A stretch of 64,000 bases of DNA, taken from the sequence record NZ_CP084508.1. The stretch is one strand, 5' to 3'. Position numbers and translations under genes: made by a program. Every line of letters begins with the position of its first letter. Positions within the stretch are counted from its first letter, which is position 1. This stretch comes from a plasmid. The notes below the pieces were generated by a model. That model ran no database searches. It was given only the letters and a program-made list of their open reading frames with translations, and had not been told where the DNA came from. Shown one piece after another: positions 11,073-63,410 of this stretch.

Positions 11073-11623
11073 ACCACGCGAAACGGCACAACACAGTTTC
11101 GGCTGATAGCGGCGATGGATTTTAGGCTGTCCCTTACGGGCCGCATTGGCCGCACCCCGCCGATTTGGCGAGTGGGACAGGTTATCGGCAATCGACGGAG
11201 AAAGGTTGCTATACACCCCGCCCTGCGCTTATGTTGCGCGGACAGAGTACGGAGCACAGAAAGGATTGCAGTTTTCCGAGCATGGCTTTATACTCCCTGC
11301 ATAGAGCAACAGCTTCTATGCAGCATTGTAGTGAGCCCCGTTAGTCTTCTTCTAGTCGCCAAACCTGGGAAGATTATCGGGGTTTTCGCTTTTCTGGCGC
11401 GGAGTAACGTCCCCCTCACCAGCTCCCTGCCACCTTGCGGCGTGGCCCGCCATGAATTCGTCTGTCTGTATCCTGCCCTCGCCCCTCATCATCAGTGATG
11501 ATGAGGGGGCAGAAACAGCGCTTCTCGCAAGAATACTACAGACAACCCAAAAAATTAACCTGTTTTCGGTCTGTTTTGGCGTACAGACGGCAACAGGATC
11601 AGAATGATGCATAAAAGGCGGCA

Positions 11624-40669: not shown

Positions 40670-41372
40670 TTACACTATGTTAACAACAGCACCACCAATA
40701 AACTCGCGCATTAGCAATATAATAAATTGCAAATTCTTATCATCAAGCAAATAGTATTTTAAAAGTGATGGATTACAGGCATAACCAACTTTGCAAACAA
40801 CACTCTTAACTCTCTTTTTGGTGGCATCTTCATTTATTTTTAATATCGCAGAAATTTCTTTCGCTCCACAACCAATAACAACAAAAGGGAATACAACTTT
40901 CTCTTTCTCAGTTAATTTAAAGAACACATCTTGAAAATTTATTGGCTTTTCTTTCGATAGCCCAATTAAATCAAAACGGCTAAGATCTTTTATAGGCTTA
41001 AACTTATTAAGTTGCCACAGATAATAAATAGAATCGAAACAAGTCAGCATTTCAATTCGAACTTGCCAAACAGCATCCCCTATAAGAATATTACGACACT
41101 GAACAAAATCATCTTTAACAAATGACACTTCAAACTCCAATTTGGTCAAATAAAAAGAAAGACCATTACTAAAGCAAAAGATATCATTTAAATGGATATC
41201 GGCATAAGACTTAGCATCACAGTTAAATTCTTTTGCAAAAGACAGGTTATAATAAACAAAGTCAGAATTTGCATTCCGAATACAAATAGGATATGGGGAT
41301 TGCTTAAACTGAGCACAATAAGAATCAAATTGACATGGAGGGTGTTTGTCTTTAGGATTGCGCATACACATA
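40670..41372 (-). CDS. LuxR/GerE-family HTH transcriptional regulator occupying the traJ position; ORF open to 41503 with a GTG
   Basis: The C-terminus LTEKEKVVFPFVVIGCGAKEISAILKINEDATKKRVKSVVCKVG is a canonical LuxR-type HTH. The sequence is very AT-rich compared with the flanking tra genes. A good RBS (agagg) precedes the ATG at 41370-41372; the longer form needs a GTG with a poor RBS. Confidence 0.6.
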
Positions 41373-41559
41373 GTGCCTCTAGCAAGGTTGCTATGGATAG
41401 CCGGTATAGCAGGGCGACATCCCTCTATATCGGCGCTTCTCAAATTTTTCAGAACAAAAGCTGTTCTAGATTCAATAATAAACCAATGATTAATTATTGT
41501 CACCTTATAAAGGTAGATAATTATTGCTTTGTTTTAGAATAAATAGATCATTATTCTAA

Positions 41560-42408: not shown

Positions 42409-42795
42409 TCACTCATCATCATGCTCACTTGGAAAGAATTTTTCTATAATCTGGCGCACATCTTCAAGAATATCAGACTTCATATTACTATAGACAAACT
42501 TCTCCTTCCCTTGCACGTAAGGGCTTAATGACGCCATCCCCATCACTTTACATATCCCGAACTGTGTTTTAAGAACATTCTCCAACAGGATTTTATTAAA
42601 CTCCATTTGGTTAAACGCAGACTCTTTTCGTTCCATTTGGGCTTCATATACGCGCAACCCCAACTCTAACAGCATAGTAGATATGCTGGAAAAGCTAACA
42701 TCACGCTCTTTCGCCCCCTCTAATCGCCTTGCTTCTACAATCGCATTGATTTTATTAGTAACTTCATCACTTACATACGCCTGAATTTTTGCCAT
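42409..42795 (-). CDS. traM: TraM relaxosome accessory protein
   Basis: MAKIQAYVSDEVTNKINAIVEARRLEGAKERDVSFSS...LLELGLRVYEAQMERKESAFNQMEFNK matches F TraM (127 aa) closely. Confidence 0.9.
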   Translation of the reverse strand: MAKIQAYVSDEVTNKINAIVEARRLEGAKERDVSFSSISTMLLELGLRVYEAQMERKESAFNQMEFNKILLENVLKTQFGICKVMGMASLSPYVQGKEKFVYSNMKSDILEDVRQIIEKFFPSEHDDE

Positions 42796-43233
42796 AGTGA
42801 TAACCTATTTTAGTATCTATACAAAGACATATTTTTCGCCAACAAAAATGACGATTCATGAGCGATTCAATCCTAAAGTCGATTCTAGATTCACCATGCC
42901 AAAATTGCAATTCACTTGACGATTCACTATACGAATTGAATCTAGATTCGATTCGTCAGCAAACCCTTGCTACACCTGATTTGATTCATTTATGAATCGC
43001 TATAGATTCACCAACGAATCGCCAATGATTCATTAATGAATTGCTTTTTATTACATTTTATAAATTACACACTTTTTTCTACAGATAACACCCTGTATTT
43101 ACAGGAAAATCAGCAAAACTTTAGTTTTGCGTAGTGTGTGGTAAAAATGGTAGCAAGGAGCACATATTTAGTTGAGTAGAACATTGGCAGGGTTTACTCT
43201 ATTCAACGTGTCAGCTCATTTGAGAAAATCAAC
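42796..43233. other. oriT: oriT region: arrays of GATTCA/TGAATC repeats (TraM/TraY/IHF-type binding sites) and an F-like nic motif
   Basis: 42840-43075 holds more than 15 copies of gattca/tgaatc in direct and inverted orientation. 43126-43145 (tttgcgtagtgtgtggtaaa) resembles the F nic region TTTGCGTGGGGTGT^GGTGCTTT; the nick is predicted near 43139/43140. Lies between traM and the divergent gene X, as in F. Confidence 0.6.
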
Positions 43234-44211: not shown

Positions 44212-45117
44212 TTATTGCGTTATATCTCTAAGATACTGATGTGCTTTTGATGCTGCACTTGCCGCTTTAAAGATAAAGCGCTTGTCGTTTTTTAACGCGG
44301 CCAACCAGGCGGCAATATAACTCTCATGTTGCACCTCTCCCGACACACCAAGATCAGCCATCAAGAACGCAGCACCTAACTCAGCGATCAACTCCTCATA
44401 AGCATAATCTTTCGACCCGAAGCCCCCTGTCATCTCTCGATTTAAGCGTGCTTTCCCTCCCGTCCAATGAATCAACTCATGTAACCCCGTCGCATAAAAG
44501 TTAGCTGCATCATTAAAACGATGCCGACTGGGTAAAACAATTTCGTCAGTTGATGGGCAAAAATAAGCAGCCGCACCATATTCACGAATACTCGCCCTCG
44601 TTGCTTTAAAAAAAAGCTCAACGTCATCGAACGGTTCAAAATTTTCTTTAGGTGTTTCCTGGGGCGCGATGGTTAAACCATCAACCTGTTCAATATTAAA
44701 GACAGTGAACGATTTCAACACGGGAAAGTTTTCAAGATCACCGTCTTGATTTTCCCTCTCCACCATGGAGTAGAAAAAGGCTGTTGTACCATGCTCACCT
44801 TTACGAACCTGTCCTCCCATTGCTTGCGCCTGCTTGTAGGTTAACCAACGCGTATCTGTATAACCGTTTTTTAATGCACTCCCCCACAGCAGCATAATAT
44901 TCATGCCACGGTATTGGCTGCCTGTCGTAAAATTAATAGGCAATCCTGAGACACCGCGCCTATCCCATGGACACACCCACGGCTTCACCCCCTTTTCAAG
45001 GGCGGCGATAATATTATCGGTGACACGTTGATAGAGGTCTTTTTTCTCACTGTTTCTTTTTTCCTGACATCTTTCAGTAGATTCAGAAGCGGCGGTGTTG
45101 ACGTTTTGTGTGTTCAT
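44212..45117 (-). CDS. ardC: ArdC-type antirestriction protein (N-terminal ssDNA-binding domain plus zincin-like metalloprotease domain)
   Basis: 301 aa with an N-terminal ArdC_N-like region (VTDNIIAALEKGVKPWVCPW) and a C-terminal HExxH (LHELIHWTG) metallopeptidase motif. Confidence 0.75.
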   Translation of the reverse strand: MNTQNVNTAASESTERCQEKRNSEKKDLYQRVTDNIIAALEKGVKPWVCPWDRRGVSGLPINFTTGSQYRGMNIMLLWGSALKNGYTDTRWLTYKQAQAMGGQVRKGEHGTTAFFYSMVERENQDGDLENFPVLKSFTVFNIEQVDGLTIAPQETPKENFEPFDDVELFFKATRASIREYGAAAYFCPSTDEIVLPSRHRFNDAANFYATGLHELIHWTGGKARLNREMTGGFGSKDYAYEELIAELGAAFLMADLGVSGEVQHESYIAAWLAALKNDKRFIFKAASAASKAHQYLRDITQ

Positions 45118-45593
45118 GCTGGGCTACTCCTTTGGATTATTTCAGTCATCTCTCAGTGAGTTCATCGCGGCAATGGGCGAAGGAGCGACGGCAGGCAGGG
45201 CATTGCAAGGGCGCCGTAGGCGTGCATTTCACCCTTGCAATGAACTGAATGACGGTGCTACGCCACGCCCACGCGAGAACACACTGAGTGATGACGTCAA
45301 CCCGACATGCACAGCATGAACACACTCGCCACGTCGAAACGACGTGGCGACCTTAGACGGTCGGCAGTTTTTCGCCGCGCGCCGTTTACGGCGCTGCAAG
45401 CGTGGGGTTTTCCAGCATCGGTTGGCACCCGCAGGGGCGGAGACACGCAAGCGTGGCTCCGTAAGACTTAGTCGGGCGGGTACAGCCCGGCTTAGTCGTT
45501 GCCAGGCGACAGCACGACCGCGTGCGGGCGAGCTGCCCTTGTGGTGCCCCAGGGGGGTAATGTTTTGCTGTTAAGCGGTAACAGGCACAGAGG

Positions 45594-45656
45594 CAGATAG
45601 AGCAGATAGAGCAGATAGAGCAGATAGAGCAGATAGAGCAGATAGAGCAGATAGAA
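45594..45656. repeat. 9-bp tandem repeat (cagatagag) x7
   Basis: Directly visible: six perfect units plus one variant (cagatagaa), non-coding, between psiA and ardC. Confidence 0.9.
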
Positions 45657-45785
45657 TAGCCATCAACACAAGATGGGACAAACGATACAGCCCCGACAGC
45701 AGCTAAATATCATCTGACAAGTCACGCGGATAGGAAAAAGCGGCGCGTCAGCGCCGCCTTGCCCTACGCACCAACGGTGCCGCGT

Positions 45786-46514
45786 TTATTTTGGGGCGTG
45801 CCTTTCCTCACCGTATATCAGTTTGTTCGGCACTATCCAGCGATCGATACCCTGGACAGTACGTGGTGCCGTTTTTGCCGTCTGAGCCATATCCTCCACC
45901 ACGCGCCACAGCGGCTCACCCGGCCAATTACGCCACGCTGACAATGAGGGGAAGCGGCGAGACCAACGCATCAACATACTCTCCAGCTCATACTCAGGCA
46001 CCCCACTGTCAGACCAGCGCGACAACCAGCTACTGACCGTCGCAGGCGTATGAAATGCCAGTGCTATCTCCGCCTGTGCGCCTAACGCCTGCAACGCCCG
46101 CTCATGCAATCTGGCTGCCTTACGACGCTGGCGGGTATATTTTTCGTCCTGCAGGTCATCCTGCCGGCGCTGGCGCTCCTGATGACTAAACGTTACTTCA
46201 GGGAACAGTGCCTGACCGGCATCCACCGGCAATGGTAACCAGCAACACGCGCCCCGGCTCTCAATCAACGTATCGATAGCCTGTAACCAGCGATCTTTCT
46301 GACCGCGTAACTCGCGCTCCGTCAGCACCGGCGCAAAGTACCGCAGTTCGCGCAGCGTGATACGGCGGACACCTCGGAGATGACGGAAAAACGCCTGTGC
46401 ATAGGGATATTTCCCCCGCCCCCGATATGCGCGGGACTCAACATCGGCAATGGCCTGCATGGCTGCCCGACGATCAGCCTGTAGCGGGACAAGCGCCTGA
46501 CTCGTCGCCATCAT
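45786..46514 (-). CDS. psiA: Plasmid SOS inhibition protein PsiA
   Basis: About 240 aa, directly downstream of psiB (overlapping stop/start). The N-terminus SQALVPL...AAM.A.A.V matches F PsiA. Confidence 0.75.
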   Translation of the reverse strand: MMATSQALVPLQADRRAAMQAIADVESRAYRGRGKYPYAQAFFRHLRGVRRITLRELRYFAPVLTERELRGQKDRWLQAIDTLIESRGACCWLPLPVDAGQALFPEVTFSHQERQRRQDDLQDEKYTRQRRKAARLHERALQALGAQAEIALAFHTPATVSSWLSRWSDSGVPEYELESMLMRWSRRFPSLSAWRNWPGEPLWRVVEDMAQTAKTAPRTVQGIDRWIVPNKLIYGEERHAPK

Positions 46515-46942
46515 AGCTCGCCCTCCATCGCCAACAAATCAATGATCGCATTGTGGGAATACCCCTCGGCATCGAGACGCACAATGAGGCCGAGTGTATG
46601 ATTGATAACCTCCGGGCTATAGGCCAGCAATGTGCGAACCACGGCAAAAGGGCGGCCACTGGCAGGGATAAACACCATCATCCAGACAGGGCTAACTTCC
46701 CCAGGGCTGCATACCGCGACATGAAACGCGCCATGAGTCGGGGTGAAACGGACTTGTACCGGGAAGAACCCGCCGAACTCACTGCGATACTCACCGCTCA
46801 TGCTCCACTGTGCTGGCGCGTTCAGGTCACGCATCACCGCATGAGTCAGCGCCCGTCGAAAATCCTCGCCGCTGGCGCGGTAATCTTCCCACTCTGACGG
46901 GATCATGGTTTTCAGGACATCGAGAGTAATAATATTACGCAT
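46511..46942 (-). CDS. psiB: Plasmid SOS inhibition protein PsiB
   Basis: HAVMR.L.AP..W.M.GEY.SEFGGFFPVQVRFTP.H..FH.A.CSPG.VS.VW is highly similar to F PsiB. Confidence 0.9.
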   Translation of the reverse strand: MRNIITLDVLKTMIPSEWEDYRASGEDFRRALTHAVMRDLNAPAQWSMSGEYRSEFGGFFPVQVRFTPTHGAFHVAVCSPGEVSPVWMMVFIPASGRPFAVVRTLLAYSPEVINHTLGLIVRLDAEGYSHNAIIDLLAMEGEL

Positions 46943-46986: not shown

Positions 46987-48951
46987 TCAGGCGGCATCAG
47001 CCGGGTGGATATCAACGTCAACGGCGGTGTCAGCCTTTTCCGGCGAGTGCATCCAACCGGGAACCCAGCGAGTCCCTGACAGCGCCTGTTCGGCGTGCTC
47101 AGCCGCATCGGACTTTTTCATTTTTTCCGCATCACGGGCAGCCCCTGACAGTCCCGCCTCGTTTAACAGGGCGATGATCGAGGGCTTGGGCATATGCATG
47201 AAAAAGTTATCCTTTGTCGGTTGCCACCAGTCGCGTAGATGAAAACCGATCGCCGACTCCAGCGGATCAAGGAGGCTGCGCGTGGTATGGCCATACTCAC
47301 GAGTCTGTACACCATCCACACTACAGGCCGTACAAAAACTCAGTAAGGCGAGTACGTCCTCGCCCGATAGCGAGAAGAACGACGTAACATCACGCTCCCA
47401 CCGTGGGGGTAAACGGCTGGCAAGACGTTCTTTCTCCTGCATCAGCGCCACAAATGCGGTACCGTCCTTTCCGCTGGGGGCGTCCTCCGTCAAACGGCTA
47501 TGGTGACAACTCAAGGAAACCTGAATTGCAGCGTTCCCCACGGTAAAGGCAAAAACACGACGGCACAGTGTCCACGCCAATACCGCAACCGCGCGCTCAG
47601 GCTGCTTCATCAATGCTGCTTGAACAGCCAGCGTTCTCTCCGATGACATTTTGGTAAGTAACGGAAGGCTAACCCCCTCGGCGACATCTGGAGCAGGGGG
47701 AAGAGAGACGAGATCACGGTCAGCATCAACGTCATTATCTCCCTCTTCTTTTAACTGCACTCCCCTCTGCACACAGAGTTGGCCATCAATCAGACTGACA
47801 ACGACACCAGAGGCCGCTTTTTGCTCCGGCGTCCACGCCCGGATTGCGGCGGCACTTTCGATATCCTCGATCAGCACCTGAATGGCCGCCTCGTCCTCAT
47901 ACGTTTCGGTGGCCACCTGTTTGGCATAGAGTTCATCCAGTTGCTGCTGTTCATCGGCGCTATACTGCCCCTCTGGCACGGGTAGCAACAGATACCGCTC
48001 ACGATCCTCGCCATAGTTTTTCAGCGGCATCTCGCGCGCCAGCGACCATGCCCACCCTTCATCCTGTTGAATAGCCTGTGCGGTTGCCGCCAGCTTTTCA
48101 TCGACCAAACGGTCGAGTAATCCCCGATCAGCCGTGCCGCTCCCCTCGATGGCGCTAAACAGATCTTCGCGCACCACCCCGCCCGCCGCTTCATATGCAT
48201 CTCGCCCGATAAGCACAAAACGGGGATCGCCAATGGAGATTTCGGTATCGATGATAGCCCGCTTTAACAAGTGTGCCGGGGCACGGCTGTATTCAGCTTT
48301 CACCTGCTGGTAAATCGCCACCTGACGCGCGGGATCACTCTCTAGACTCAGCGCCTGACACTGCTCCACGTCGATCGTGTTTTCGGCTAAGAGGGCGATA
48401 AGCTCCGGGGCAAGGTTGGCCAGTTTCAGCATGCGCTTGACGTGTAGCGAGCTATACCCCAGCTGGCCACCAATCTGCTCCGGGGTCTTCCCCTGCTCCG
48501 ATAGGGTACGAAACCCGATGATCTGTTCAGCAGGGTGCATCGCCACCCGCTGGCTGTTCTCGGCGACCGAGGCCACTGCCGCCAGTTCATCCGAGACCCG
48601 CTTAACCGCGACCCGGTAATCGGCATCGATACGCTGTTCAGCACACAACAGTTGCAGGGCGGTCAGGCGACGGCCTCCGGCAGCCACGCCCAACAGACCA
48701 TCGGGCAACGCGTGAACCACCAGATTTTGCAACAGCCCGATGGCGGCGATGGTGTCGGCCAGCTCACGTACACTCTCCACCGGATACGGGATGGTACGGA
48801 CGTTCAGCGGGGATTTGACCAGTGCCGACAGCGGCACCATTTCAATCTGCGCTGCCTCAAGGGCGGCTTTCAGGGCGGCAGCGTCGGCAGACTTGACGCT
48901 TTTTTTGCTGGCTCTGGCAGGGGATTTTGCTTTAGACTCGGTTACTGACAT
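46987..48951 (-). CDS. ParB-like nuclease-domain protein of the leading region
   Basis: The N-terminal ParB/Sulfiredoxin-type domain (VPLSALVKSPLNVR...GLLQNLVVHALPDG...GGRRLTALQL) is followed by an HTH-like segment and a long acidic C-terminal region. Start is chosen at the ATG at 48949-48951 with a GAGGAG RBS; the ORF is open to 49029. Confidence 0.65.
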   Translation of the reverse strand: MSVTESKAKSPARASKKSVKSADAAALKAALEAAQIEMVPLSALVKSPLNVRTIPYPVESVRELADTIAAIGLLQNLVVHALPDGLLGVAAGGRRLTALQLLCAEQRIDADYRVAVKRVSDELAAVASVAENSQRVAMHPAEQIIGFRTLSEQGKTPEQIGGQLGYSSLHVKRMLKLANLAPELIALLAENTIDVEQCQALSLESDPARQVAIYQQVKAEYSRAPAHLLKRAIIDTEISIGDPRFVLIGRDAYEAAGGVVREDLFSAIEGSGTADRGLLDRLVDEKLAATAQAIQQDEGWAWSLAREMPLKNYGEDRERYLLLPVPEGQYSADEQQQLDELYAKQVATETYEDEAAIQVLIEDIESAAAIRAWTPEQKAASGVVVSLIDGQLCVQRGVQLKEEGDNDVDADRDLVSLPPAPDVAEGVSLPLLTKMSSERTLAVQAALMKQPERAVAVLAWTLCRRVFAFTVGNAAIQVSLSCHHSRLTEDAPSGKDGTAFVALMQEKERLASRLPPRWERDVTSFFSLSGEDVLALLSFCTACSVDGVQTREYGHTTRSLLDPLESAIGFHLRDWWQPTKDNFFMHMPKPSIIALLNEAGLSGAARDAEKMKKSDAAEHAEQALSGTRWVPGWMHSPEKADTAVDVDIHPADAA

Positions 48952-49057
48952 GATTAAACTCCTCAGTTTTATGATTGTCCGCCGGACAGCCCACCTGTCC
49001 GGCACCTCTGCTAACTTACCCAGCCCCACAACTCGCGGGGTGTATTCATCAGGTCAT

Positions 49058-49603
49058 TCAGAACGGAATGTCATCTATCGGCGGATAATCCTGCTGTGAC
49101 GGCTGCGGCGCTTGCTGAGAGGGCGCAGCGCTCTGACGGCCTTTTTTACCCCCCTTTGCTTTCGTGGACTTTGTCGGGGCATCAACGGGTTGTGCCGGGG
49201 TTTGCTGTTGTGTGGACTGCTGCGAAGCCGTGCTTTGTGACTGGCCACCGTCACGACGACCGCCCAGCATCTGCATGGTTCCGCTCTGACTCACCACGAT
49301 CTCGGTAACATAGCGAGTCACGTTGCTATCATCCTGCCAGCTACGAGTACGCAACTGGCCCTCGATATAGATCTGCGCCCCTTTTTGTAAATATTCCCCA
49401 GCAATCTCCGCGAGATTGCCGAACACCACCACACGGTGCCATTCTGTTTTTTCACGCGTCTCTCCGGTCTGCTTGTCGCGCCACGTATCCGAAGTGGCCA
49501 GCGAGAGATTGGCGACTGCGCCCCCATTGGGCATATAGCGGATTTCGGGATCTTGTCCCAGATAGCCGACGAGGATGACTTTGTTGATGCCACGTACTGT
49601 CAT
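49058..49603 (-). CDS. ssb: Plasmid single-stranded DNA-binding protein SSB
   Basis: [84 protein letters not shown]...DIPF: an OB-fold with the acidic DIPF tail. Confidence 0.95.
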
Positions 49604-49636
49604 GATGAATCCCCTTCTGTTTGTTTTGCCTTTAAA

Positions 49637-50400
49637 AACCATCACCCGTTGAGTTACGAGAGCCGCGGTTTTGACGTTTTGCGGGAGCCTGCTGTTTTGT
49701 TCCCGGTGGTATGACCTTCACCCGTTTGAGAACCTTCGCCGCAAGGGCGTAAACGAGCACGGCCCGGCGCCGCTGTCCGGGGTGAGCGGTCAATTTTTTA
49801 CGGTCTAATGGAGCAACGCGGAATGGCCGGAGAAAATTTATCGCGAAAGGCGCTGCCGTCCCTGGACTGCAAGGCGGGTTGTGCTTGTCTCAGCCCAGGC
49901 GAAAGGGACTTAAACGGTGAAATGGCACCCGGAATGATAATGAGCAGGAGCCCGCCGCAACGACGGAGCGCGGCACGCGAAACGGCGTTGCCCCGAAGAA
50001 GCCCGGCAGGTTCACCGCCGGGCTGGTGAAAGCGGCGCGACCGAACAGGTCGCAGCAAGCGAGGTGTTGACGTTGCGACATGGGATGGAAACCCGCTGCC
50101 CCGCAGGGGCCGGGCAGAGACAGCGTAGCTGGCTCTGTGCGCAGCATGACAGCCCGGTTCCCGCAGGGAAGTCGCCCGGTGTTAATGGCGTTACAAAAGG
50201 AATTCGACTGAGAAGAATAAGCGCCGTAACCATAGTGGCCATAACCCGACGCAAAGAAACCGACGTAGCCAGCTCACCACCGATACAACGACACATTGCC
50301 AGCCCAGGAAACGGACGCGAACGGAGGGGAGCGGCGCGTAGCGCAGCACCCTCCGGCGCCGCAGGCGCGCGGCTTTTTGTGGCGCGGCCAGACAGAAACA
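49637..50400. repeat. GC-rich structured ssDNA-promoter (Frpo/ssi-type) element, copy A, immediately upstream of ssb
   Basis: A ~760-bp non-coding GC-rich segment, ~90% identical over most of its length to 52871-53565. It contains TTGACG -35-like hexamers (gaggtgttgacgttgcgacatgggatgg) inside long imperfect hairpins. Confidence 0.55.
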
Positions 50401-50429
50401 CCTGTGCTCCTGCCTGGCCCCTATGCCTA

Positions 50430-50993
50430 TCAAAGCCTTATTTTGATCAGGGAGGTTGAAACAGCAGTATAGGTAAACGTACCGCGCGGCAATGGCTCCC
50501 AGACATCACATAACGGTTGCAGGGTGCTCTGTTGTCGAGGCCCATTAAGGCAGATTGCGACGAGTACGCCGCCGGGGGCGAGCAACGTTACCGCGTGCTG
50601 TATGTGGCGGATATCCTGGGCATGATGAAACGGTGGATTCATCAGGATCTTGTTGTAGCGTGTTTCCGGTTGGTACGTCAGAAAATCACCGCACCAAACG
50701 TTAACGCCCGGAAAGCTCGCCCGTAGATGTGCGGCTAACGCCGCGTTAAGCTCCACGGCATCACACCGCGCCAGCGGAGCAGCCTCCCGGACAGCCCGCA
50801 AGATAGCGCCCGTTCCCGCGCTTGGCTCAAGAATGCTATCAGCCGCTGTAATCTCTGCCAGCTCGACAAGTTGATTACAGACCGGATCGGGCGTGACGAA
50901 AAGCTGTGAACTGGCCCCAATTTCGGTAACAGGGGATCGCCCGTCCAACCTGGCCCGCATTGCTTGAATACGGTGCCTCAATTCGCTATGCAT
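50430..50993 (-). CDS. SAM-dependent N6-adenine/N4-cytosine DNA (or rRNA) methyltransferase, orphan (NPPF motif)
   Basis: The SAM-binding motif I (ILEPSAGTGAILRA) is followed by the motif IV NPPF of N6-amino methyltransferases. No adjacent restriction gene. Confidence 0.6.
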   Translation of the reverse strand: MHSELRHRIQAMRARLDGRSPVTEIGASSQLFVTPDPVCNQLVELAEITAADSILEPSAGTGAILRAVREAAPLARCDAVELNAALAAHLRASFPGVNVWCGDFLTYQPETRYNKILMNPPFHHAQDIRHIQHAVTLLAPGGVLVAICLNGPRQQSTLQPLCDVWEPLPRGTFTYTAVSTSLIKIRL

Positions 50994-51041
50994 GGTGACA
51001 TCGTCCTTATCTCCCCGGCGATAAGCCGGGGAGCCTGATGG

Positions 51042-52418
51042 TTATTTTTGCGGGATTTCAACGAGTTTCATGTCGGTGATAAACACCGTCTCAAGCGTGC
51101 AGCCGCTGCCCAAAACACGGCGATAGCGGTAGGCCCCATGCTCGTCATTTTCCGCCACGCTCCGGACTCCTTTATAATCAGGCGGGGTTTTAGCCCATTC
51201 GGCCTTGGTCATCCCCCGGAAGCCCTCGCCCGGATAGTTGACGATGGGCGGCCGTTTTGCGGCGCTCTTCGCGGCGCTGGCCTCTTCAACCGATGGGGCT
51301 TTGTAGTCCGTAATGCGATCAGGGGTGAGTTTCATCGTTCCACCGTAACCAAGGAAGCGATAGCACGGCGTCTCCACGGAGCTGACTACCCCATTACGTT
51401 TATTGACCCGGATAATGCTCAGCCACTCACCCCGGCTCTGCACCTGCCCACCCACCTCGAACGCCTGCGCCTGAGAAACGACGCTACCGCTTTCATCCAG
51501 CATGGCACGCTCATAGGCCAGGCGATTACGGTAATGCGTCGCCCAGCGCTGCTGATGGCGGATCGTTCGCTCATGAACACGAACCGCAATAGTGCGGGCT
51601 TGCTCAAAAGTAATAATTTCCTCACCCAGCGCGGAATACAGGGACATTCGCCCCTCATACTGGCTTTTATCTGCCGGGCGTGGGTACTTGTCCAAGGTAA
51701 AACAGGCCGAGATATGATCGTGACTGCTGACAAGTCGCGCCATGTTGAGATCAAGCGTTTCCGCGCGCCACATCGTCAGATATTTCTGCGACTGAGCAAG
51801 GGTCTTTTCTACCTTGCGCAAGTCCGCCTCAATCTTTTTGATGCGGCGGTAGCGTACATCCGGGCGCTCTTTGTTTTTCGCATGAGCCAGAGACGCCCGC
51901 GCGCGATCTTCCCAATATTCGGCACGCTCAAACAGCATTACGGCGCGCTTCATTCCGTCTTCAATTTTTTTCGCATTCCGGCGCGCACGGCGTTCGCTGT
52001 GATGCCCGACCAGAATCGGCTGGCCGAATGGGATAGCCGATACCAGCGCATCAACCTGTGCGAGTACCTGCTCAGACTCACCGGCGCGCTTATCACTGTA
52101 ACCACTAAAACGCTCCGCCCGTTGCTGTTGACGGTCTAGCAAGGTGCTGTCCTCATCTTCAATATCTCCGGCCAACGATAAGAGCAGATCTTCACGGCAG
52201 GGCGTCCAAGCCGGCGCAACAAATAATTTCTGTTTCGGTGCCCAGCGGAAGCCCAGATCATGGAGTTTTTTATAGGTTTCCTCATCGAGGCGCTGCGTGG
52301 CATACAGGCGCAATTTGTTGTCGTCCGGGGAGTAGGTTGCACGGTAGGTCTGGCCGTAAACCTCTTCAGCAACAGCCTGGTGGATCATCTCGGCACTGCG
52401 TGCTGGTGCAGTGATCAT
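51042..52418 (-). CDS. Conserved leading-region hypothetical protein (possibly DUF3560-like), function unknown
   Basis: 458-aa hydrophilic protein with no recognisable catalytic motif. It is co-oriented with ssb and transcribed from the copy-B hairpin element. Confidence 0.35.
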   Translation of the reverse strand: MITAPARSAEMIHQAVAEEVYGQTYRATYSPDDNKLRLYATQRLDEETYKKLHDLGFRWAPKQKLFVAPAWTPCREDLLLSLAGDIEDEDSTLLDRQQQRAERFSGYSDKRAGESEQVLAQVDALVSAIPFGQPILVGHHSERRARRNAKKIEDGMKRAVMLFERAEYWEDRARASLAHAKNKERPDVRYRRIKKIEADLRKVEKTLAQSQKYLTMWRAETLDLNMARLVSSHDHISACFTLDKYPRPADKSQYEGRMSLYSALGEEIITFEQARTIAVRVHERTIRHQQRWATHYRNRLAYERAMLDESGSVVSQAQAFEVGGQVQSRGEWLSIIRVNKRNGVVSSVETPCYRFLGYGGTMKLTPDRITDYKAPSVEEASAAKSAAKRPPIVNYPGEGFRGMTKAEWAKTPPDYKGVRSVAENDEHGAYRYRRVLGSGCTLETVFITDMKLVEIPQK

Positions 52419-52469
52419 GATTTTTTCTCCTTCCTGCGGTTGCCGCCCCTTAAGGGGCGGCTCACCTCA

Positions 52470-52700
52470 TCAGTTAAATGCGCGTTTCAGTTCAAGGGTG
52501 CGGAGCAGCTGCCCAAAGGCCGCGTTATTCATCGCGGGGATGTGTACCCCGCGCCCCTTGCGGATACGTTTTGCGATATGCCGCCCGAAAGCCTTTACGG
52601 CGGGGTCGATCTCCGGTGCGGAAATATCGGCCCGCTTGATACGCCTATGACGACGGGGCTTTACAGTCCCGGCGGAAGGTGAAATAATGCTTAATGTCAT
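52470..52700 (-). CDS. Small basic hypothetical protein (76 aa)
   Basis: ORF directly downstream of Frpo-like copy B, ending ~50 bp before the 51042..52418 start. Basic composition (many R/K). Confidence 0.3.
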   Translation of the reverse strand: MTLSIISPSAGTVKPRRHRRIKRADISAPEIDPAVKAFGRHIAKRIRKGRGVHIPAMNNAAFGQLLRTLELKRAFN

Positions 52701-52870
52701 ATAGTTAACTCCTAGTAGTTAATGAAGCTGTGAACACCGCTGGAACGGTTTTCACGACGTGGATTAAGCAGGGGTTTCCCCTGCTTTTTTCATATCTACG
52801 GTTTACGCTGTGGGTTGTCTGCCTCCTTAACGCTGATCGCGTTCCTCTGTTTTCTCTCAAGTTTTTAAAG

Positions 52871-53565
52871 AACATCACCCGTTGAGTTACGGGAGCCGCG
52901 GTGTTGACGTTTCGCGGGGGCCTGCTGGTTGTTCCCTCCGGTACTACCATCACCCGTTTGAGAACCTTCGCCGCAAGGGCGTAAACGATCACGGGCGATG
53001 GCCGCTGTCTAGGGCGCGGTTTACCGCGTGCTATTTACCCTGGACAGCGGATAGCGACTGTGATTGTCTCAGCCCAGGCGAAAGGGGCTTAAACGGGGGA
53101 GAGGCACCGATGCGGCAACGAGCAGGAGCCCGCCGCAACGACGGAGCGCGGCACGCGAAACGGCGTTGCCCTGAAGAAGCCCGGCAGGTTCACCGCCGGG
53201 CTGGTGAAAGCGGCGCGACCGAACAGGTCGCAGCAAGCGAGGTGTTGACGTTGCGACATGGGATGGAAACCCGCTGCCCCGCAGGGGCCGGGCAGAGACA
53301 GCGTAGCTGGCTCTGTGCGTAGCATGACAGCCCGGTTCCCGTAGGGAAGTCGCCCGGTGTTAGTGGCGCCACAAAGGGAATTCAGCCGACAGGAGCAAGC
53401 ACCATAGTGGCCATAACCCGATTCAAAGAAACCGACGTAGCCAGATCACCGCCGATACAATGACACATTGCCAGCACAGGAAACGGACGCGAACGGAAGG
53501 GAGCGGCGCGTAGCGCGGCACCCTCCGGCGCCGCAGGCGCGCGGTCTTTTGTGGCACGGCGAAAC
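52871..53565. repeat. GC-rich structured ssDNA-promoter (Frpo/ssi-type) element, copy B
   Basis: Homologous to 49637-50400: the same ends (aacatcacccgttgagttacg... to ...ccctccggcgccgcaggcgcgcgg) and the same TTGACG-containing hairpin core. Confidence 0.55.
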
Positions 53566-53598
53566 AGGGGAAGATGGCCTCCCCCCGCAGTCACTAAC

Positions 53599-54027
53599 TT
53601 AATCGAGCGCAGCATAAATAGCGTCACATTCGGGATGGAACTCGATATAGCTCCAAAGCTGGGTATCCCGCTGTATATACAGCTCGGTCAGCGCGGTATT
53701 ACCGCAATCGTGCTGTGTCCAGCAACGGCGATTGATGGCAAGAGATGTCAGGATGATACCCGCCGCCTCGGCACTAATGGTACGATCAAACCAGTTTTCG
53801 CCGTTGATCATATGCACCTTGCCGCAATCCGGCATCATGAAGCCGCCCCCGTCAGGCAAGCGGATAAAGTGCCAGAATCCCCCCTCATATTCCGGTATCA
53901 GCTTTCTGGCCAGTGCGTACACCTGCAATTCAGCCAGCATGAAATCATCGCCGAACAGATACGGCAGGAAAGACAAACGGTCGGACTCTTCGACGTTCAG
54001 GGTGTGCCGATAGGCTGCATACTGCAT
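53599..54027 (-). CDS. Antirestriction-family protein (ArdB/KlcA/Antirestrict-like) of the leading region
   Basis: 143-aa acidic protein (MQYAAYRHT...) in the position occupied by antirestriction genes in IncF leading regions. Start is the ATG at 54025-54027 with a strong GGAGG RBS. The family call is tentative. Confidence 0.45.
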   Translation of the reverse strand: MQYAAYRHTLNVEESDRLSFLPYLFGDDFMLAELQVYALARKLIPEYEGGFWHFIRLPDGGGFMMPDCGKVHMINGENWFDRTISAEAAGIILTSLAINRRCWTQHDCGNTALTELYIQRDTQLWSYIEFHPECDAIYAALD

Positions 54028-54059
54028 GATAAACCTCCGCAATCACAAATGACGCGACA

Positions 54060-54300
54060 CCGGGCGGTGCCGTGCATCCATAACAGCCGGGTGAAAAAGC
54101 CGGGGATACAAGGGCGCTAGGGAAGCCGCAGCCTGACGCGCACGGCAGACGGGAGCTGGAGGGTGAGGCCGCGAAACCTGAACGGACGAACGACCGGAAG
54201 ATCACGGCAGACGTGAAGGAAGGACCGGGTGACCGCAGCGGCGTTAGCGAACCCTTGTATCCACGGTGGCCCGGCTACGATGGATGCACGGCACAGCCCG
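54060..54300. repeat. Long imperfect inverted repeat (about 55-bp arms, ~125-bp spacer) upstream of the antirestriction gene; third ssDNA-promoter-like hairpin
   Basis: ggcggtgccgtgcatccataacagccgggtg...ggggatacaagggcgct pairs with agcgaacccttgtatccacggtggcccggctacgatggatgcacggcacagcccg, a near-perfect reverse complement. Confidence 0.4.
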
Positions 54301-54474
54301 CAGACGGCACCGGGTCGGCAGAGTGGAAAATCATCAGGCAACGTCCTACAGGGACGGGGCCGCCAAAAAAGCGGAGCTGGCGACATCCTTCGAGTATTGG
54401 GAGGATTCAGGGGATCGCCCCCCGGCAGTTGACTACGGGGGGCTGGATCACACCGCCGGCGCGGCGTGGGGATT

Positions 54475-54894
54475 TCAGTTTTTCAGTAAAGCGCGCACTT
54501 TAGCCGCATCAGCCAAGCGACGGGTAACACTTTCCGGCACTGGATGGTTATTATCCCGAGCCGCCCACTCTCTGCACCGTAGAGCCTGTTCTGCGGTCGT
54601 CAGCAGGGTTTCAAGCAAGTCAGCCGGTACCATCACCGCCGGAACAGCCTGTTTCACCTGATCGATCAGCTCCATTACCGCCTCGCAAGACACGCCAGAT
54701 TCAAGCAGCTGCTCTTCTGATATGGTATCAATGCGCTCCAGTACCTCCCTAATGGCTTGTTTAGAAAGGGCATAGTCCATTCCGTCGATCAGCGCTTCGA
54801 TATTCTCCGGGGACCAGACAATCAGGTTCAGAGGGGTTTCAGCGGGATATTGCTCTTTCAGCAGCCGGCAAAGGGTTTCACGAGTTCCAAACAT
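54475..54894 (-). CDS. Hypothetical acidic protein (139 aa), leading region
   Basis: ORF with a plausible start; no recognisable motifs. Sits between the DPPY methyltransferase and the antirestriction gene. Confidence 0.35.
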
Positions 54895-54951: not shown

Positions 54952-55632
54952 TCACGCCGCCTCTGGATAAAAGACGTCATTGGCGGCCGGGCGCTGTATG
55001 GCTCGCTGTACGGCTGACAAGCGCTCAATGCCGGCTTTGTGGTACTGCTCCATCAGCTCGATACCGATATAACGGCGGCCTGACTGGAGGGCCGCCACGC
55101 AGGTAGAGCCTGAGCCAGCAAAGGGGTCGAGAACAATGGCGTTCGGACGTGTGAGCGACTCAATCAGTGGTTGCAGGCTGGTAACGGGCTTCTCGGTCGG
55201 GTGGTGACGGTTGCCTGAATATTTCCAGCCCAACACATCCGGTAGTGGGTTTTGGGGTAGTGATGGGCGGCCTTTCGCCAGAACATAAGCACATTCATGG
55301 CGATAACCGACATAAACGGTTTTCGATGTGTAGGTTTTGGTGAACACCAGATGCCCGACAACGCTAAATCCGGCTGCTTTCCATGCTGCCATAAAGCGAT
55401 CGATGTGGTTCCAGCCGTAGAAGCTGACCATCAGCGCGTCTTTTTTCAGTACGCGATACATCTCATGGCAGGCGGGTTGCAGCCATTCATCGGTTTTGTC
55501 ACCGGCAATAGTACGCCCGGAACGGTCACAAAACCCCACTAGATACGGTGGGTCAGTCAAGATGAAATCGACGGCGGCCGCAGGAAAACCGGCCATAATA
55601 TCGACGCAATTCCCCAGAATAAAACGGGACAT
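54952..55632 (-). CDS. Orphan DNA N6-adenine (or N4-cytosine) methyltransferase with a DPPY motif
   Basis: FILTDPPYLVGF (motif IV DPPY) near the N-terminus and DPFAGSGSTCVAA (motif I) near the C-terminus, a beta-class amino-MTase arrangement. No cognate restriction gene. Confidence 0.75.
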   Translation of the reverse strand: MSRFILGNCVDIMAGFPAAAVDFILTDPPYLVGFCDRSGRTIAGDKTDEWLQPACHEMYRVLKKDALMVSFYGWNHIDRFMAAWKAAGFSVVGHLVFTKTYTSKTVYVGYRHECAYVLAKGRPSLPQNPLPDVLGWKYSGNRHHPTEKPVTSLQPLIESLTRPNAIVLDPFAGSGSTCVAALQSGRRYIGIELMEQYHKAGIERLSAVQRAIQRPAANDVFYPEAA

Positions 55633-56306
55633 AAGGACACCTCGCAGGTACAAGGGGCATCCAGGAGGGCGCCACCACGGTGCCCGTTCCCTGCTGCCCG
55701 TAGCCTGTACGCCGCGACCGGCAACGGGTCAAGCTGACCGTGGAATATCGCAACCGTCGGTATTTTGACGGCGAGAATATGCCGCGAAAGCGGCTTGAAG
55801 GGCATTCCTTAAAAGGCGAGTGGACGGCGTAAAATTACACCGACGCCGGACAGGAGCGGAAAAGTCGCCCGCCCCGTGTCCGTCCGGTCGAGGCAGACTG
55901 GCTACGGGCAGTGGATATCCCCGCGCAACACGCGGCATGAATGAGGAGCCATGCAACAACATCCTAGCGTGACTGCTCCCTGCCCTGTCGGGCGAGGGTT
56001 TACGGCGTTTTTCGCTCATTAAAGAGATAGGAATCAATATTCGCGACTATTGCTGGATGACTGAGCAAAAAGCATCCGAGAATGAGATAAGATATTTAAT
56101 TATATTAGATAAATACTTGAACTAAGCATTATCATCTCTGCCTTGCAGAAGGCAATCATTGACTATATTCACACTGTCAAATGTTAATCCTTACCTATTG
56201 TATAAATTGCTAATATATTGACATAATTACAAGAATGTAGACTTTACAGTAAAACACCTGTAACTCATTAGTTATCATTTGTTAAACAATAGGAGGTTTT
56301 CATACT

Positions 56307-61089: not shown

Positions 61090-61380
61090 CCTCTCTGGTA
61101 AACAAAGACCAAAACCTCAATTTGAGTAACAGAATCACAAAGTTACTCAATCTGAGTCATTCAACTCAGTGTAATCTCAAGTTATACTCAAAATCAAATT
61201 ATTTTAAAATTATTTTAATATTAAAACGATATCATATCAATATCTATAGTGTAGATAGTCAATCCCATCACCACCTCCCTACACCTTACATGATACTCAA
61301 ACTGAGTAAGTCAACAGAGTCACTACTAATCACAAATACTCATTCTGAGTATTTATGATTGGTATCCACTGGGCAATCAA
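61090..61380. promoter_or_regulatory. parC: parC-like centromere/promoter: repeated ACTCA-N-TGAGT iterons upstream of parM
   Basis: At least six copies of TACTCAAAnTGAGTa-like units (ttgagtaacag, ttactcaatctgagtca, tcaactcagtg, tatactcaaaatc, atactcaaactgagtaag, tactcattctgagtat). Confidence 0.5.
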
Positions 61381-61556
61381 ATAGAGAGGCACCAGCGGTA
61401 CGCTGGCTTACGGATCGCCACCATCAGAGGCTTTTCGCCTCGGTAAAATAATATTATTTTAATATTAAAACAATTTAATCTATCGGCTGTTTTGTGTGTT
61501 GACAAACGCTTATGGTTAACTATCATGTTAATATTATATTAATATTAAGGCTCGGT

Positions 61557-62210
61557 ATGATACTCACGATTGCGAATACCAAAGGCGGCGTAGGTAAGTC
61601 AACCTTAGCCGTGAATATTGCAGCAGCAAGGGCTCTTCAAGGGCGCAAGGTTTGGCTTGTTGATGGTGATAAACAAGGATCGTCTCAAACAGCTATTTTG
61701 GTCAGATCTGAATCAGGCGTTACTCCAGGTATAGCCTGTTCACACTATCCTGATGGGGCTGTATTGCGCAGCCAAGTACTCCTACAAAAAGACGGATTCG
61801 ATGATGTTATCATTGAGTGTGGGGGGAGAGACTCAACAGCAATGCGTGCTGCTTTAACACTGACTGACGTATTCCTATGCCCAACAGCACCAGGGAGCTT
61901 TGAAGCGTGGGCTATGGATGCCAATAGAGATCTCGTCAGAGAGGCAAGAAGTATCCGAGATGGACTCGTCTGTTACGCGTTACTCAATAAGGCTGATACT
62001 CATCCGAAAGCATCAGACAATGCAGAAATGCTAGAGATGATGGAAGAGTATAAAGATGACATGCCAATACTCAACACCACTATCTACTCGAGAAAAGCTT
62101 TCTCTAATGCAGCGGGTAGTGGCAGGACAGTAAAAGAGTTGAAGCTACGCTCACGAGAAAAAGTGGCCATTGACGAGTTGGATAAACTTATTTCGATGTT
62201 ATTTGAATAG
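61557..62210 (+). CDS. parA: ParA/ParF-type (type Ib) partition ATPase
   Basis: Deviant Walker A KGGVGKST at the N-terminus; ~217 aa, with no N-terminal HTH extension. Confidence 0.8.
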   Translation: MILTIANTKGGVGKSTLAVNIAAARALQGRKVWLVDGDKQGSSQTAILVRSESGVTPGIACSHYPDGAVLRSQVLLQKDGFDDVIIECGGRDSTAMRAALTLTDVFLCPTAPGSFEAWAMDANRDLVREARSIRDGLVCYALLNKADTHPKASDNAEMLEMMEEYKDDMPILNTTIYSRKAFSNAAGSGRTVKELKLRSREKVAIDELDKLISMLFE

Positions 62211-62255
62211 CTTTTTAATACTCATTTAATATTAAAACAATATTAAGGTAATATT

Positions 62256-62531
62256 ATGGCAATCCAAAAAAAACCCCAATCTATAGTAACGACGACTGAT
62301 TCAGCTGTAGAGAAATTCATAAATGCAGCTCCTGATGGTCAAAGCAAGAAAGGTGTTATAAAAGGTAAGAAGCAACAAATCACCATTACGATGGAGCCGT
62401 CACTCATAGAACAGATTGATGCTGCGGCAGCAGAAAACGGTCAATCAAGAGCCGCGTTCATTAACATGTCTTGCATCAATGCCCTCGAAAACGGTGTCCA
62501 AATAGGTGGCCGAAAGAAGTATCAAAACTAG
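62256..62531 (+). CDS. parG: ParG-like ribbon-helix-helix centromere-binding protein
   Basis: 91 aa with a flexible basic N-terminal tail, then an RHH (QITITMEPSLIEQIDAAAAENGQSRAAFINMSC). Immediately downstream of the ParA-type gene. Confidence 0.6.
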   Translation: MAIQKKPQSIVTTTDSAVEKFINAAPDGQSKKGVIKGKKQQITITMEPSLIEQIDAAAAENGQSRAAFINMSCINALENGVQIGGRKKYQN

Positions 62532-62538
62532 CAGAAAG

Positions 62539-62579
62539 TAATATGACAGTGAAATCATAAACATATCATTGTCATATTA
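62539..62579. repeat. Inverted repeat taatatgacagtga-N13-tcattgtcatatta between the parG and recombinase stops
   Basis: 13/14-bp arms. Candidate recombination site for the adjacent tyrosine recombinase, or a bidirectional terminator. Confidence 0.3.
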
Positions 62580-63410
62580 AACTGATACTAAAATAATATT
62601 ACTTTGATATTTTACATTACAGCCTGATTTTCTCAAGATAGCTACGGCATCTGTTTCCGACATCGAAAAATTCACACGCTGTTTAGCGGCGACATCGAGC
62701 GCAAAAATCCGTGTGTAGACCTCTGTCGATTTTAAACTTTTGTGCCCCAGTAGTCCCTGCAGAACCTTAATAGGGACCCCCGCGTAGATCATATGCATCG
62801 CGTAGGAGTGCCGGAACGTGTGGGGCGTGACTGGCACGCTAAATGTCACCCCGTCGGCAGCCGCCCGGGCAACCGCATCATTTAGCCAGGTTCGCACTGT
62901 GCGATCGGTAACCTCCCAAATTCTGGCCGGGGCCATCCTTCCCGTGCGGCGCTCTTTACGCTCCATTGGTATGCGCAGTGTCGCAATCATCGTTTGCAGT
63001 TGTTCTATATAGTGCGGATCGGACAGCGGAACTAGCCGGTTAGTCACGCTATTTCGGGCAGGCGCGCCGGGACCGCGTAGGGCTTTTTCCTGGCGTTGTT
63101 TGAGCGTGGCCAGTGATACATACGGATACGGCCCCGAAAACGAAAAGTCGCGACGGCACAACGATAACGCTTCATTGATCCGCGCGCCGGTATTCCATAG
63201 TGTGGCGATGAGGGTTTTCTGGTACAGGTCGGGGATATAGTGCAGCAGAGCGCTGATCTCCACGGCCAGCAGGTATTTGGGATAGTCATCGTGAGCCAGG
63301 GCCAACTGGCGCAATGCCAAGGCCACTGGGTAGTCGATAGAGACTGGTAAGGTAGGCGACGTAATCAAGGGCGATTCGTTATAGCGTTGCGGATAGTGAT
63401 CGCCATTCAT
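62577..63410 (-). CDS. Tyrosine site-specific recombinase (Xer/ResD-like; probable multimer resolvase)
   Basis: The C-terminus HTFRHSYAMHMIYAGVPIKVLQGLLGHKSLKSTEVYTRIF carries the R...HxxR...Y catalytic box. Start is chosen at the ATG at 63408-63410, which overlaps the upstream stop as ATGA; the ORF is open to 63545. Confidence 0.75.
   Translation of the reverse strand: MNGDHYPQRYNESPLITSPTLPVSIDYPVALALRQLALAHDDYPKYLLAVEISALLHYIPDLYQKTLIATLWNTGARINEALSLCRRDFSFSGPYPYVSLATLKQRQEKALRGPGAPARNSVTNRLVPLSDPHYIEQLQTMIATLRIPMERKERRTGRMAPARIWEVTDRTVRTWLNDAVARAAADGVTFSVPVTPHTFRHSYAMHMIYAGVPIKVLQGLLGHKSLKSTEVYTRIFALDVAAKQRVNFSMSETDAVAILRKSGCNVKYQSNIILVSV

Follow-up and report, generated by a model that had tools for sequence, protein, structure and literature searches.

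Genetic context of the repeats

This analysis concerns two intergenic repeats, copies A and B, on a plasmid (sequence record NZ_CP084508.1), which a sequence-only reading had likened to the Frpo/ssi type of single-stranded DNA (ssDNA) promoter, known as class 1. The 64,000-nt stretch that was analysed, referred to as the window, comes from a conjugative plasmid of the F-like type. Rfam places CopA at 11301-11391 and FinP at 41365-41440, on the + strand. The gene traM lies at 42409-42795 (-), and between it and a transglycosylase gene is an AT-rich origin of transfer (oriT) region containing the nic-like sequence GCGTAGTGTGTGG (43129-43141, +). A search for the F-type nic sequence allowing 3 mismatches gave no match; the R100-like GCGTAGTGTGTGG was found by reading the sequence, and is presumed to be an R100/F-like variant of the F-family nic sequence. 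Beyond this motif, every leading-region gene is on the minus strand. Since the nic-like motif and FinP are on the + strand, and traM and the leading genes are on the minus strand, it is the + strand that is transferred and that serves as template for these leading genes. The orientation that had been claimed for the repeats relative to the transferred strand is therefore correct.

Copy A (49631-50395, +) lies in the interval between the stop of a class I S-adenosylmethionine (SAM) methyltransferase gene (50430) and the start of ssb (49603). The minus-strand unit that follows it begins with ssb (49058-49603; Pfam SSB, 3e-39) and continues through a ParB-like gene (46987-49029; Pfam ParB_N/HTH_ParB), psiB (46511-46942) and psiA (45786-46514) down to 45786, an order shared with Edwardsiella and Klebsiella plasmids and with F. 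Copy B (52864-53567, +) is upstream of a second minus-strand unit (50430-52700), in which a 76-aa open reading frame (ORF; 52470-52700) is followed by genes for a DUF3560 protein (51042-52418) and the methyltransferase (50430-50993). A Klebsiella plasmid also has these three genes after a class-1 copy. The assignments of psiA, psiB, DUF3560 and the methyltransferase are from Pfam. The repeats had been placed exactly at the 5' ends of these units, which fits copy A, 28 nt from the ssb ATG (49603), but not copy B, which is 164 nt from the ATG at 52700 with an antisense-RNA gene in between.

Copies A and B were delimited from families of direct repeats and by pairwise alignment, which covers about 767 columns with 82% identity when gaps are counted and 88% column identity. 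Compared with copy B, identity is 94% in the block at 49939-50228 and 92% in the block at 50229-50395. The GC content is 0.61 in copy A and 0.63 in copy B, compared to 0.51 for the whole window, and the conserved core GTTGACGTTGCGACATGGGATGG occurs once in each copy (50066-50088 in A and 53244-53266 in B). The earlier description of two GC-rich paralogous elements of about 700 bp with a common core is thus accurate. Their termini, which were said to be identical, are closely alike but only near-identical, and the count of two was incomplete, as a third, divergent copy (copy C) lies at about 45060-45780.

Copies A and B are non-coding paralogues in the leading region, as had been claimed. No open reading frame spans both copies, and the indels between them (1, 49, 5, 1, 1 and 6 nt) break the frame. 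The 79 substitutions between A and B have no 3-periodicity, with modulo-3 counts of 22/13/18 in the proximal part and 8/11/7 in the distal part. A Pfam search of eight internal ORFs gave no match at E<=0.1. A protein-coding gene was rejected on these three grounds, and the frame conserved across both copies that would have spoken for one was looked for and not found. A known structured RNA family was also rejected for A and B, because no Rfam covariance model matched inside either copy, on either strand, at the gathering threshold or at E<=1.

Homology of the proximal part to class-1 promoters

The part of each repeat that is homologous to known promoters is the proximal ~340 nt of copy A and ~290 nt of copy B. 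It corresponds to hairpins at 49653-49995 (+) and 52886-53173 (+), the second having 49 nt fewer at its apex. In blastn comparisons, A and B are about 70% identical to the F elements Frpo2 and Frpo1/ssiD over 340-408 nt (E 1e-36 to 1e-44); for the copy A hairpin the values are about 70% identity with E of 1e-42 and 1e-36. The published ssiD/Frpo sequence (supplement file 4 of PMC11541004) matches the window with E of 1e-34 to 1e-35. Its counterpart runs from 49637 to ~49998 in copy A and from 52871 to ~53176 in copy B. An nhmmer class-1 profile built from eight homologues finds copy A with E 1.6e-108 and copy B with E 1.5e-82.

At least 5000 plasmid records carry the element, with 17,251 matching places among them. 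Among the matches listed, the carriers are mostly conjugative plasmids of Klebsiella, Escherichia and Salmonella, the nearest relatives of the region are Edwardsiella plasmids (96% identity), and copies on Klebsiella IncFII(K)-type plasmids (84%) are nearer than F. These Klebsiella plasmids have one copy before ssb and one before a unit of hypothetical, DUF3560 and methyltransferase genes. Elements of this type are well known and occur very widely; identifying them here is ordinary.

A close known parallel to copy A is F Frpo2 (ssp1b), which likewise precedes ssb directly, in a unit that continues with the ParB-like gene, psiB and psiA. It also shares with copy A its orientation on the transferred strand and its long imperfect hairpin, and the two are about 70% identical over about 400 nt. 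The F sequence has nevertheless diverged from copy A, to which the Klebsiella copies are closer. F Frpo1/ssiD (ssp1a), reportedly the element that Masai and Arai (1997) characterised in vitro, is homologous to both A and B (E 1e-36) and shares the layout of TGGACT motif, bubble and GC clamp. In F it is located beside oriT, upstream of ygeA/ygeB; in the window, the divergent copy C takes this position, ahead of an ArdC-like gene. Copy B has a different position from either F element, on the far side of ssb and upstream of the methyltransferase unit.

The IncI1 class-1 elements ssi1-3 of ColIb-P9/pESBL are also dispersed direct repeats, one before each leading-region operon, and share with A and B a central hairpin (CTGTCCGGGG...CCCCTGGACW) and the bubble layout. 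However, BLAST aligns them over only ~80-130 nt, and only to the F and Salmonella copies, and they lack the basal stem and TTGACG motif of A and B. Class-2 (ssp2) and class-3 (ssp3, M.EcoGIX-type) promoters have the same role and lie in the same region, but have no sequence similarity to A and B. The F regions of these two promoters gave no match to either copy and instead match 54043-54310 and 55654-55911, so that a class-2 or class-3 identity for A and B was rejected. In F and pESBL an N6_N4 DNA methylase is driven by class 3, whereas in the window a class-1 copy would serve an unrelated class I SAM methyltransferase unit. A more distant parallel is the single-strand origin (sso) of rolling-circle plasmids. 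There, host RNA polymerase also recognises a folded single strand and makes a primer RNA, but there is no homology to A and B and no mRNA is synthesised for downstream genes (PMC7690428).

Fold of the transferred strand

The proximal part of the + strand is predicted to fold as one long imperfect hairpin in each copy. With DNA parameters, copy A has -80.7 kcal/mol (z -3.5) on the + strand and -61.7 kcal/mol (z -0.05) on the complement. The values for copy B are -83.6 kcal/mol (z -6.5) and -68.2 kcal/mol (z -4.0). The + strand hairpin is thus 15-19 kcal/mol more stable than its complement in both copies. These strand-specific energies indicate that the hairpin is a property of the transferred strand and not of the mRNA. 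A stable long hairpin on the transferred strand, which the sequence-only reading had proposed to look for, is therefore present in both copies. Its extent is smaller than was proposed. Only the proximal ~340 nt (A) or ~290 nt (B) forms the long hairpin, while the distal ~400 nt forms small hairpins, so the idea of a single 700-bp hairpin gives way to a composite of a promoter hairpin and a distal module.

The hairpin is also supported by covariation among eight copies from four plasmid lineages, whose consensus hairpin has 93 pairs. In this alignment 94.4% of cells are paired, compared to 41-48% when the partners are slid by 1-3 columns. Compensatory changes occur in 15 pairs of the hairpin and in 1-4 pairs of the slid controls. 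G-T pairs outnumber A-C juxtapositions by 61 to 10, although this count is biased because the structure was predicted on the same strand. The energy asymmetry between the strands is independent of that bias.

Proposed placement of the promoter boxes

The pattern that the sequence-only reading had proposed to look for, TTGACG-N17-TAnnnT, does not occur here; a search of the whole window gave 0 matches. A TTGACG is present at the base of the 5' arm (49671-49676 in A, 52904-52909 in B) and is invariant in F-type copies. It was rejected as the -35 of the downstream unit because it is followed by GTTTTG, GGTTGT or GGGCTA, none of which resembles a -10, and because in copy C the motif is inside the ArdC-like coding sequence. 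The core at 50066-50088 was also rejected as a promoter: it lies outside ssiD and the Frpo hairpin, in the distal module, and its TTGACG is absent from both F copies.

The 3' arm contains a better candidate. Ten class-1 elements from four lineages, including ColIb-P9 ssi1-3, have a duplex TGGACW followed by a bubble. The series along the 3' arm is an internal loop, CCC(C), the paired TGGACW, a mostly paired spacer of 17-21 nt, TGT or TTA, a bubble of 3-5 nt, and a GC clamp. TGGACW has 4-5 of 6 matches to TTGACA, and the 4-nt bubble 20 nt downstream is conserved. In copy A the putative -35 is the base-paired TGGACT at 49863-49868 (+), as read from the pairing table. The candidate pre-melted -10 is the TGT and the 4-nt internal loop CTCA at 49886-49893 (CTCA 49889-49892), the TGT being 17 nt past the -35-like hexamer and the bubble opposite GTAAA (49749-49752) on the 5' arm. 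The corresponding candidates in copy B are a fully paired TGGACA at 53041-53046 (+) and the TGT with its CTCA bubble at 53065-53071 (CTCA 53068-53071).

The best guess is that the duplex TGGACW and the 4-nt bubble constitute the promoter. This placement is based on their conservation, on the boundary of the Frpo2 construct (PMC11541004), and on any alternative -35 falling in the apical loop of copy B. The fragment used in the Frpo2 rescue experiment ends, in transferred-strand terms, just after the bubble (PMC11541004), which agrees with the placement. A TTGAGA-N18-TAAACG pair on the 5' arm would direct transcription to the loop and is less likely, since the strand that would pair with TTGAGA is missing from the Frpo2 construct (PMC11541004). 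A TTGYGG beside the apical A/T stem was disfavoured because it would fall in the apical loop of copy B. A crude scan of 49604-50430 and 52701-53600 found no minus-strand sigma-70 consensus site, which is consistent with a promoter that works only as ssDNA but is weak evidence.

Interpretation and proposed mechanism

Copies A and B are most likely class-1 ssDNA promoters (Frpo/ssi/ssp1) of an F-like conjugative plasmid, each joined to a distal module, with a probability of roughly 0.85. The single-strand-promoter reading made from the sequence gains support from the homology to F, the strand, the strand-specific hairpin and the compensatory changes; these, together with the orientation of the genes, were observed on the copies themselves. 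The box bases, the transcription start and the activity of A and B are presumptive.

During conjugation, the + strand would enter the recipient 5' end first, from a nick near 43139/43140. While still single-stranded, 49653-49995 and 52886-53173 would fold into the long imperfect hairpins, and the stem would mimic a promoter through its -35-like TGGACW, its mostly paired 17-18-nt spacer and a mismatch bubble that serves as a melted -10. The 3' arm would be the non-template strand, and sigma-70 RNA polymerase would copy the 5' arm outwards to lower coordinates. The transcript from copy A would read into ssb, the ParB-like gene, psiB and psiA after a leader of about 140 nt. From copy B, a leader of about 275 nt would precede the 76-aa ORF and the genes for the DUF3560 protein and the methyltransferase. 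Each transcript would also prime synthesis of the complementary strand; once the second strand is made, the hairpin would be lost and the promoter switched off.

Homologues on F and IncI1 plasmids show SSB-stimulated sigma-70 transcription from the single strand, early zygotic induction and production of a primer RNA for the second strand (PMC9849209, PMC12672017, bioRxiv 10.64898/2026.01.09.698686). Published work has located where transcription from class-1 promoters begins (PMC12672017) and has shown that the RNA made from them primes the second strand in vivo (bioRxiv 10.64898/2026.01.09.698686). Given their homology to the F and IncI1 elements, copies A and B should likewise recruit sigma-70, give an early burst of expression and make primer RNA.

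Some points weigh against this interpretation. No canonical -10 or TATAAT-like hexamer was recognised, and the candidate -10 (TGTCTC and the bubble) is without the usual A at -11. The placement of the boxes is itself inferred. The excess of G-T pairs fits a + sense RNA equally well. Copy B is without the 49-nt apical segment that holds an A/T-rich stem in A, F and Klebsiella, and it may be a weaker promoter as a result.

Through Frpo-type promoters, SSB, SOS inhibitors, methyltransferases and antirestriction proteins are made before the defences of the recipient act, and these promoters therefore matter for the spread of antibiotic resistance. The window adds no new principle but is a compact example from an Edwardsiella-type F-like plasmid. 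It shows a class-1 copy serving a methyltransferase/DUF3560 cassette that can be gained or lost via recombination between copies.

Alternative explanations

The shorter apex of copy B also bears on a different possibility, that this copy is a passive by-product of recombination or a cassette junction, and that the methyltransferase unit is expressed by read-through from an upstream promoter. Recombination between Frpo repeats does appear, from the aligned sequences, to gain or lose the methyltransferase/DUF3560 cassette that they flank. Recombination between copies is evident in the single copy of a Pluralibacter plasmid, a chimera in which columns 1-171 match the Klebsiella copy upstream of ssb (Kp_a) and columns 172-368 match the Klebsiella copy upstream of the methyltransferase unit (Kp_b), and this plasmid does not have the methyltransferase/DUF3560 cassette that lies between the two Klebsiella copies. 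The same recombination idea has been put forward for IncI plasmids (PMC3817090). The near-100% identity of 49950-50140 to copy B suggests gene conversion as well. However, copy B has kept the long hairpin, with a stronger z-score (-6.5) than copy A, as well as the fully paired TGGACA and the same bubble. Its short-apex form is also kept in a related Edwardsiella plasmid (L002, 12245-12552, E 4.6e-79), and a full-length class-1 copy is at the same place in Klebsiella. It is therefore improbable that copy B is only a passive remnant.

It is very unlikely that the conserved structure acts in RNA, either as the minus-sense 5' leader of the ssb and methyltransferase mRNAs or as a long + sense RNA, non-coding or antisense. 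In favour of such a role, transcription of the 5' arm as a leader is certain (the arm of copy C contains the ribosome-binding site and ATG of the ArdC-like gene), and the + strand has the G-T asymmetry noted above, hairpins followed by a T run at the distal ends and a weak promoter-like site at 49305-49332. Against it, minus-sense copy A folds no better than shuffled sequences, no Rfam family was found on either strand of A or B even at E<=1, the promoter-like site is the sole one nearby and has a 9/12 match in a scan that returned 8 sites with 5.8 expected by chance, and the F homologues have been shown by experiment to act as ssDNA promoters.

The distal module

Beyond the ssiD-homologous part, both class-1 copies continue into a distal module of about 400 nt (49996-50395 in A and 53174-53567 in B, both +), with 92-94% identity between them. 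The copy A module contains small conserved hairpins at 50000-50025, 50032-50056 and 50115-50137 with compensatory changes, and also the core at 50066-50088. Beyond these come a spacer rich in purines and, at 50323-50378, terminal GC hairpins. The module folds moderately better than chance (z -3.8 on the + strand and -1.7 on the - strand), and 11 of 41 consensus pairs have compensatory changes. At the distal ends of A and B the + strand has hairpins and then a T run (50356-50378 and 53528-53549); those of copy A at 50356-50373 are terminator-like. In copy C and F, the aligned terminal hairpins read in mRNA sense as an intrinsic terminator of the upstream operon.

The first ~200 nt of the module is also duplicated in F, where the repeat is 559 bp with 89% identity, and is present in the aligned Klebsiella, Pluralibacter and Salmonella copies. 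F Frpo2 therefore shares the module in part, but that of the window is longer and holds GTTGACGTTGCGACAT, whose TTGACG is lacking in F. No description of the module was found in the accessible literature on these promoters. It is possible, but doubtful, that these ~400 nt have a function of their own on the transferred strand, beyond that of a spacer and terminator. They might form a boundary, or a roadblock to polymerase, and so preserve the single-stranded state of the promoter hairpin, or they might be a second priming signal.

Other elements in the leading region

The leading region contains five ssDNA-promoter-like hairpins of three classes within 11 kb. Copy C, the third class-1-like element, lies between psiA and the ArdC-like gene (44212-45117, -; Pfam). 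Its hairpin spans about 45089-45385, and the 751-nt stretch has a fold of -180 kcal/mol (z -11.4). The class-1 profile matches it at 45079-45193 (E 1.7e-6). In place of TGGACW it has TTGCAA (45235-45240), and the ATG within its 5' arm is at 45117. Only 18 plasmid records, all from Edwardsiella, match copy C over its full length; pEh-Pc1, a related plasmid, has it twice. The spacer of copy C contains seven perfect tandem copies of the 9-nt GCAGATAGA at 45593-45655; at the equivalent place F has a purine-rich run of the GAAGAG type.

The region at 54043-54310 forms a long hairpin with 31-nt arms (54061-54091 and 54270-54300; z -5.8) directly upstream of an ArdB/KlcA-type antirestriction gene (53599-54042, -; Pfam). 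It has 87% identity to the region upstream of the F antirestriction gene, and this F counterpart is taken, from the sequence match, to be the published class-2 promoter ssp2. The ssp2 element has been reported as a replication roadblock. After a gene for a DUF1380 protein (54475-54894, -; Pfam) and an N6_N4 DNA methylase gene (54952-55653, -; Pfam), the region at 55654-55911 forms another hairpin (arms 55694-55721 and 55884-55911; z -6.3) upstream of the methylase. It has 79% identity to the region upstream of the F DNA methylase, which is likewise taken to be the class-3 (ssp3, M.EcoGIX-type) ssDNA promoter.

The antisense RNA between copy B and its unit resembles AS-pc01 (Rfam RF02875; 52695-52789, +), with a sub-threshold score of 63.4 bits (gathering score 79) and E 1.9e-9. 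It has its own + strand promoter-like site, TTTACA-17-AATAAT with a TG (52660-52688), and a T run comes after its terminator hairpin (52766-52786). This RNA overlaps with the ATG at 52700 that starts the 76-aa ORF, within the leader predicted from copy B.

Further along the window, at 61191-62610, there are AT-rich repeats (TTTTAATATTAAAAC.ATAT) with 11-bp spacing, in 8 copies arranged in three groups. These may be iterons or a partition site.

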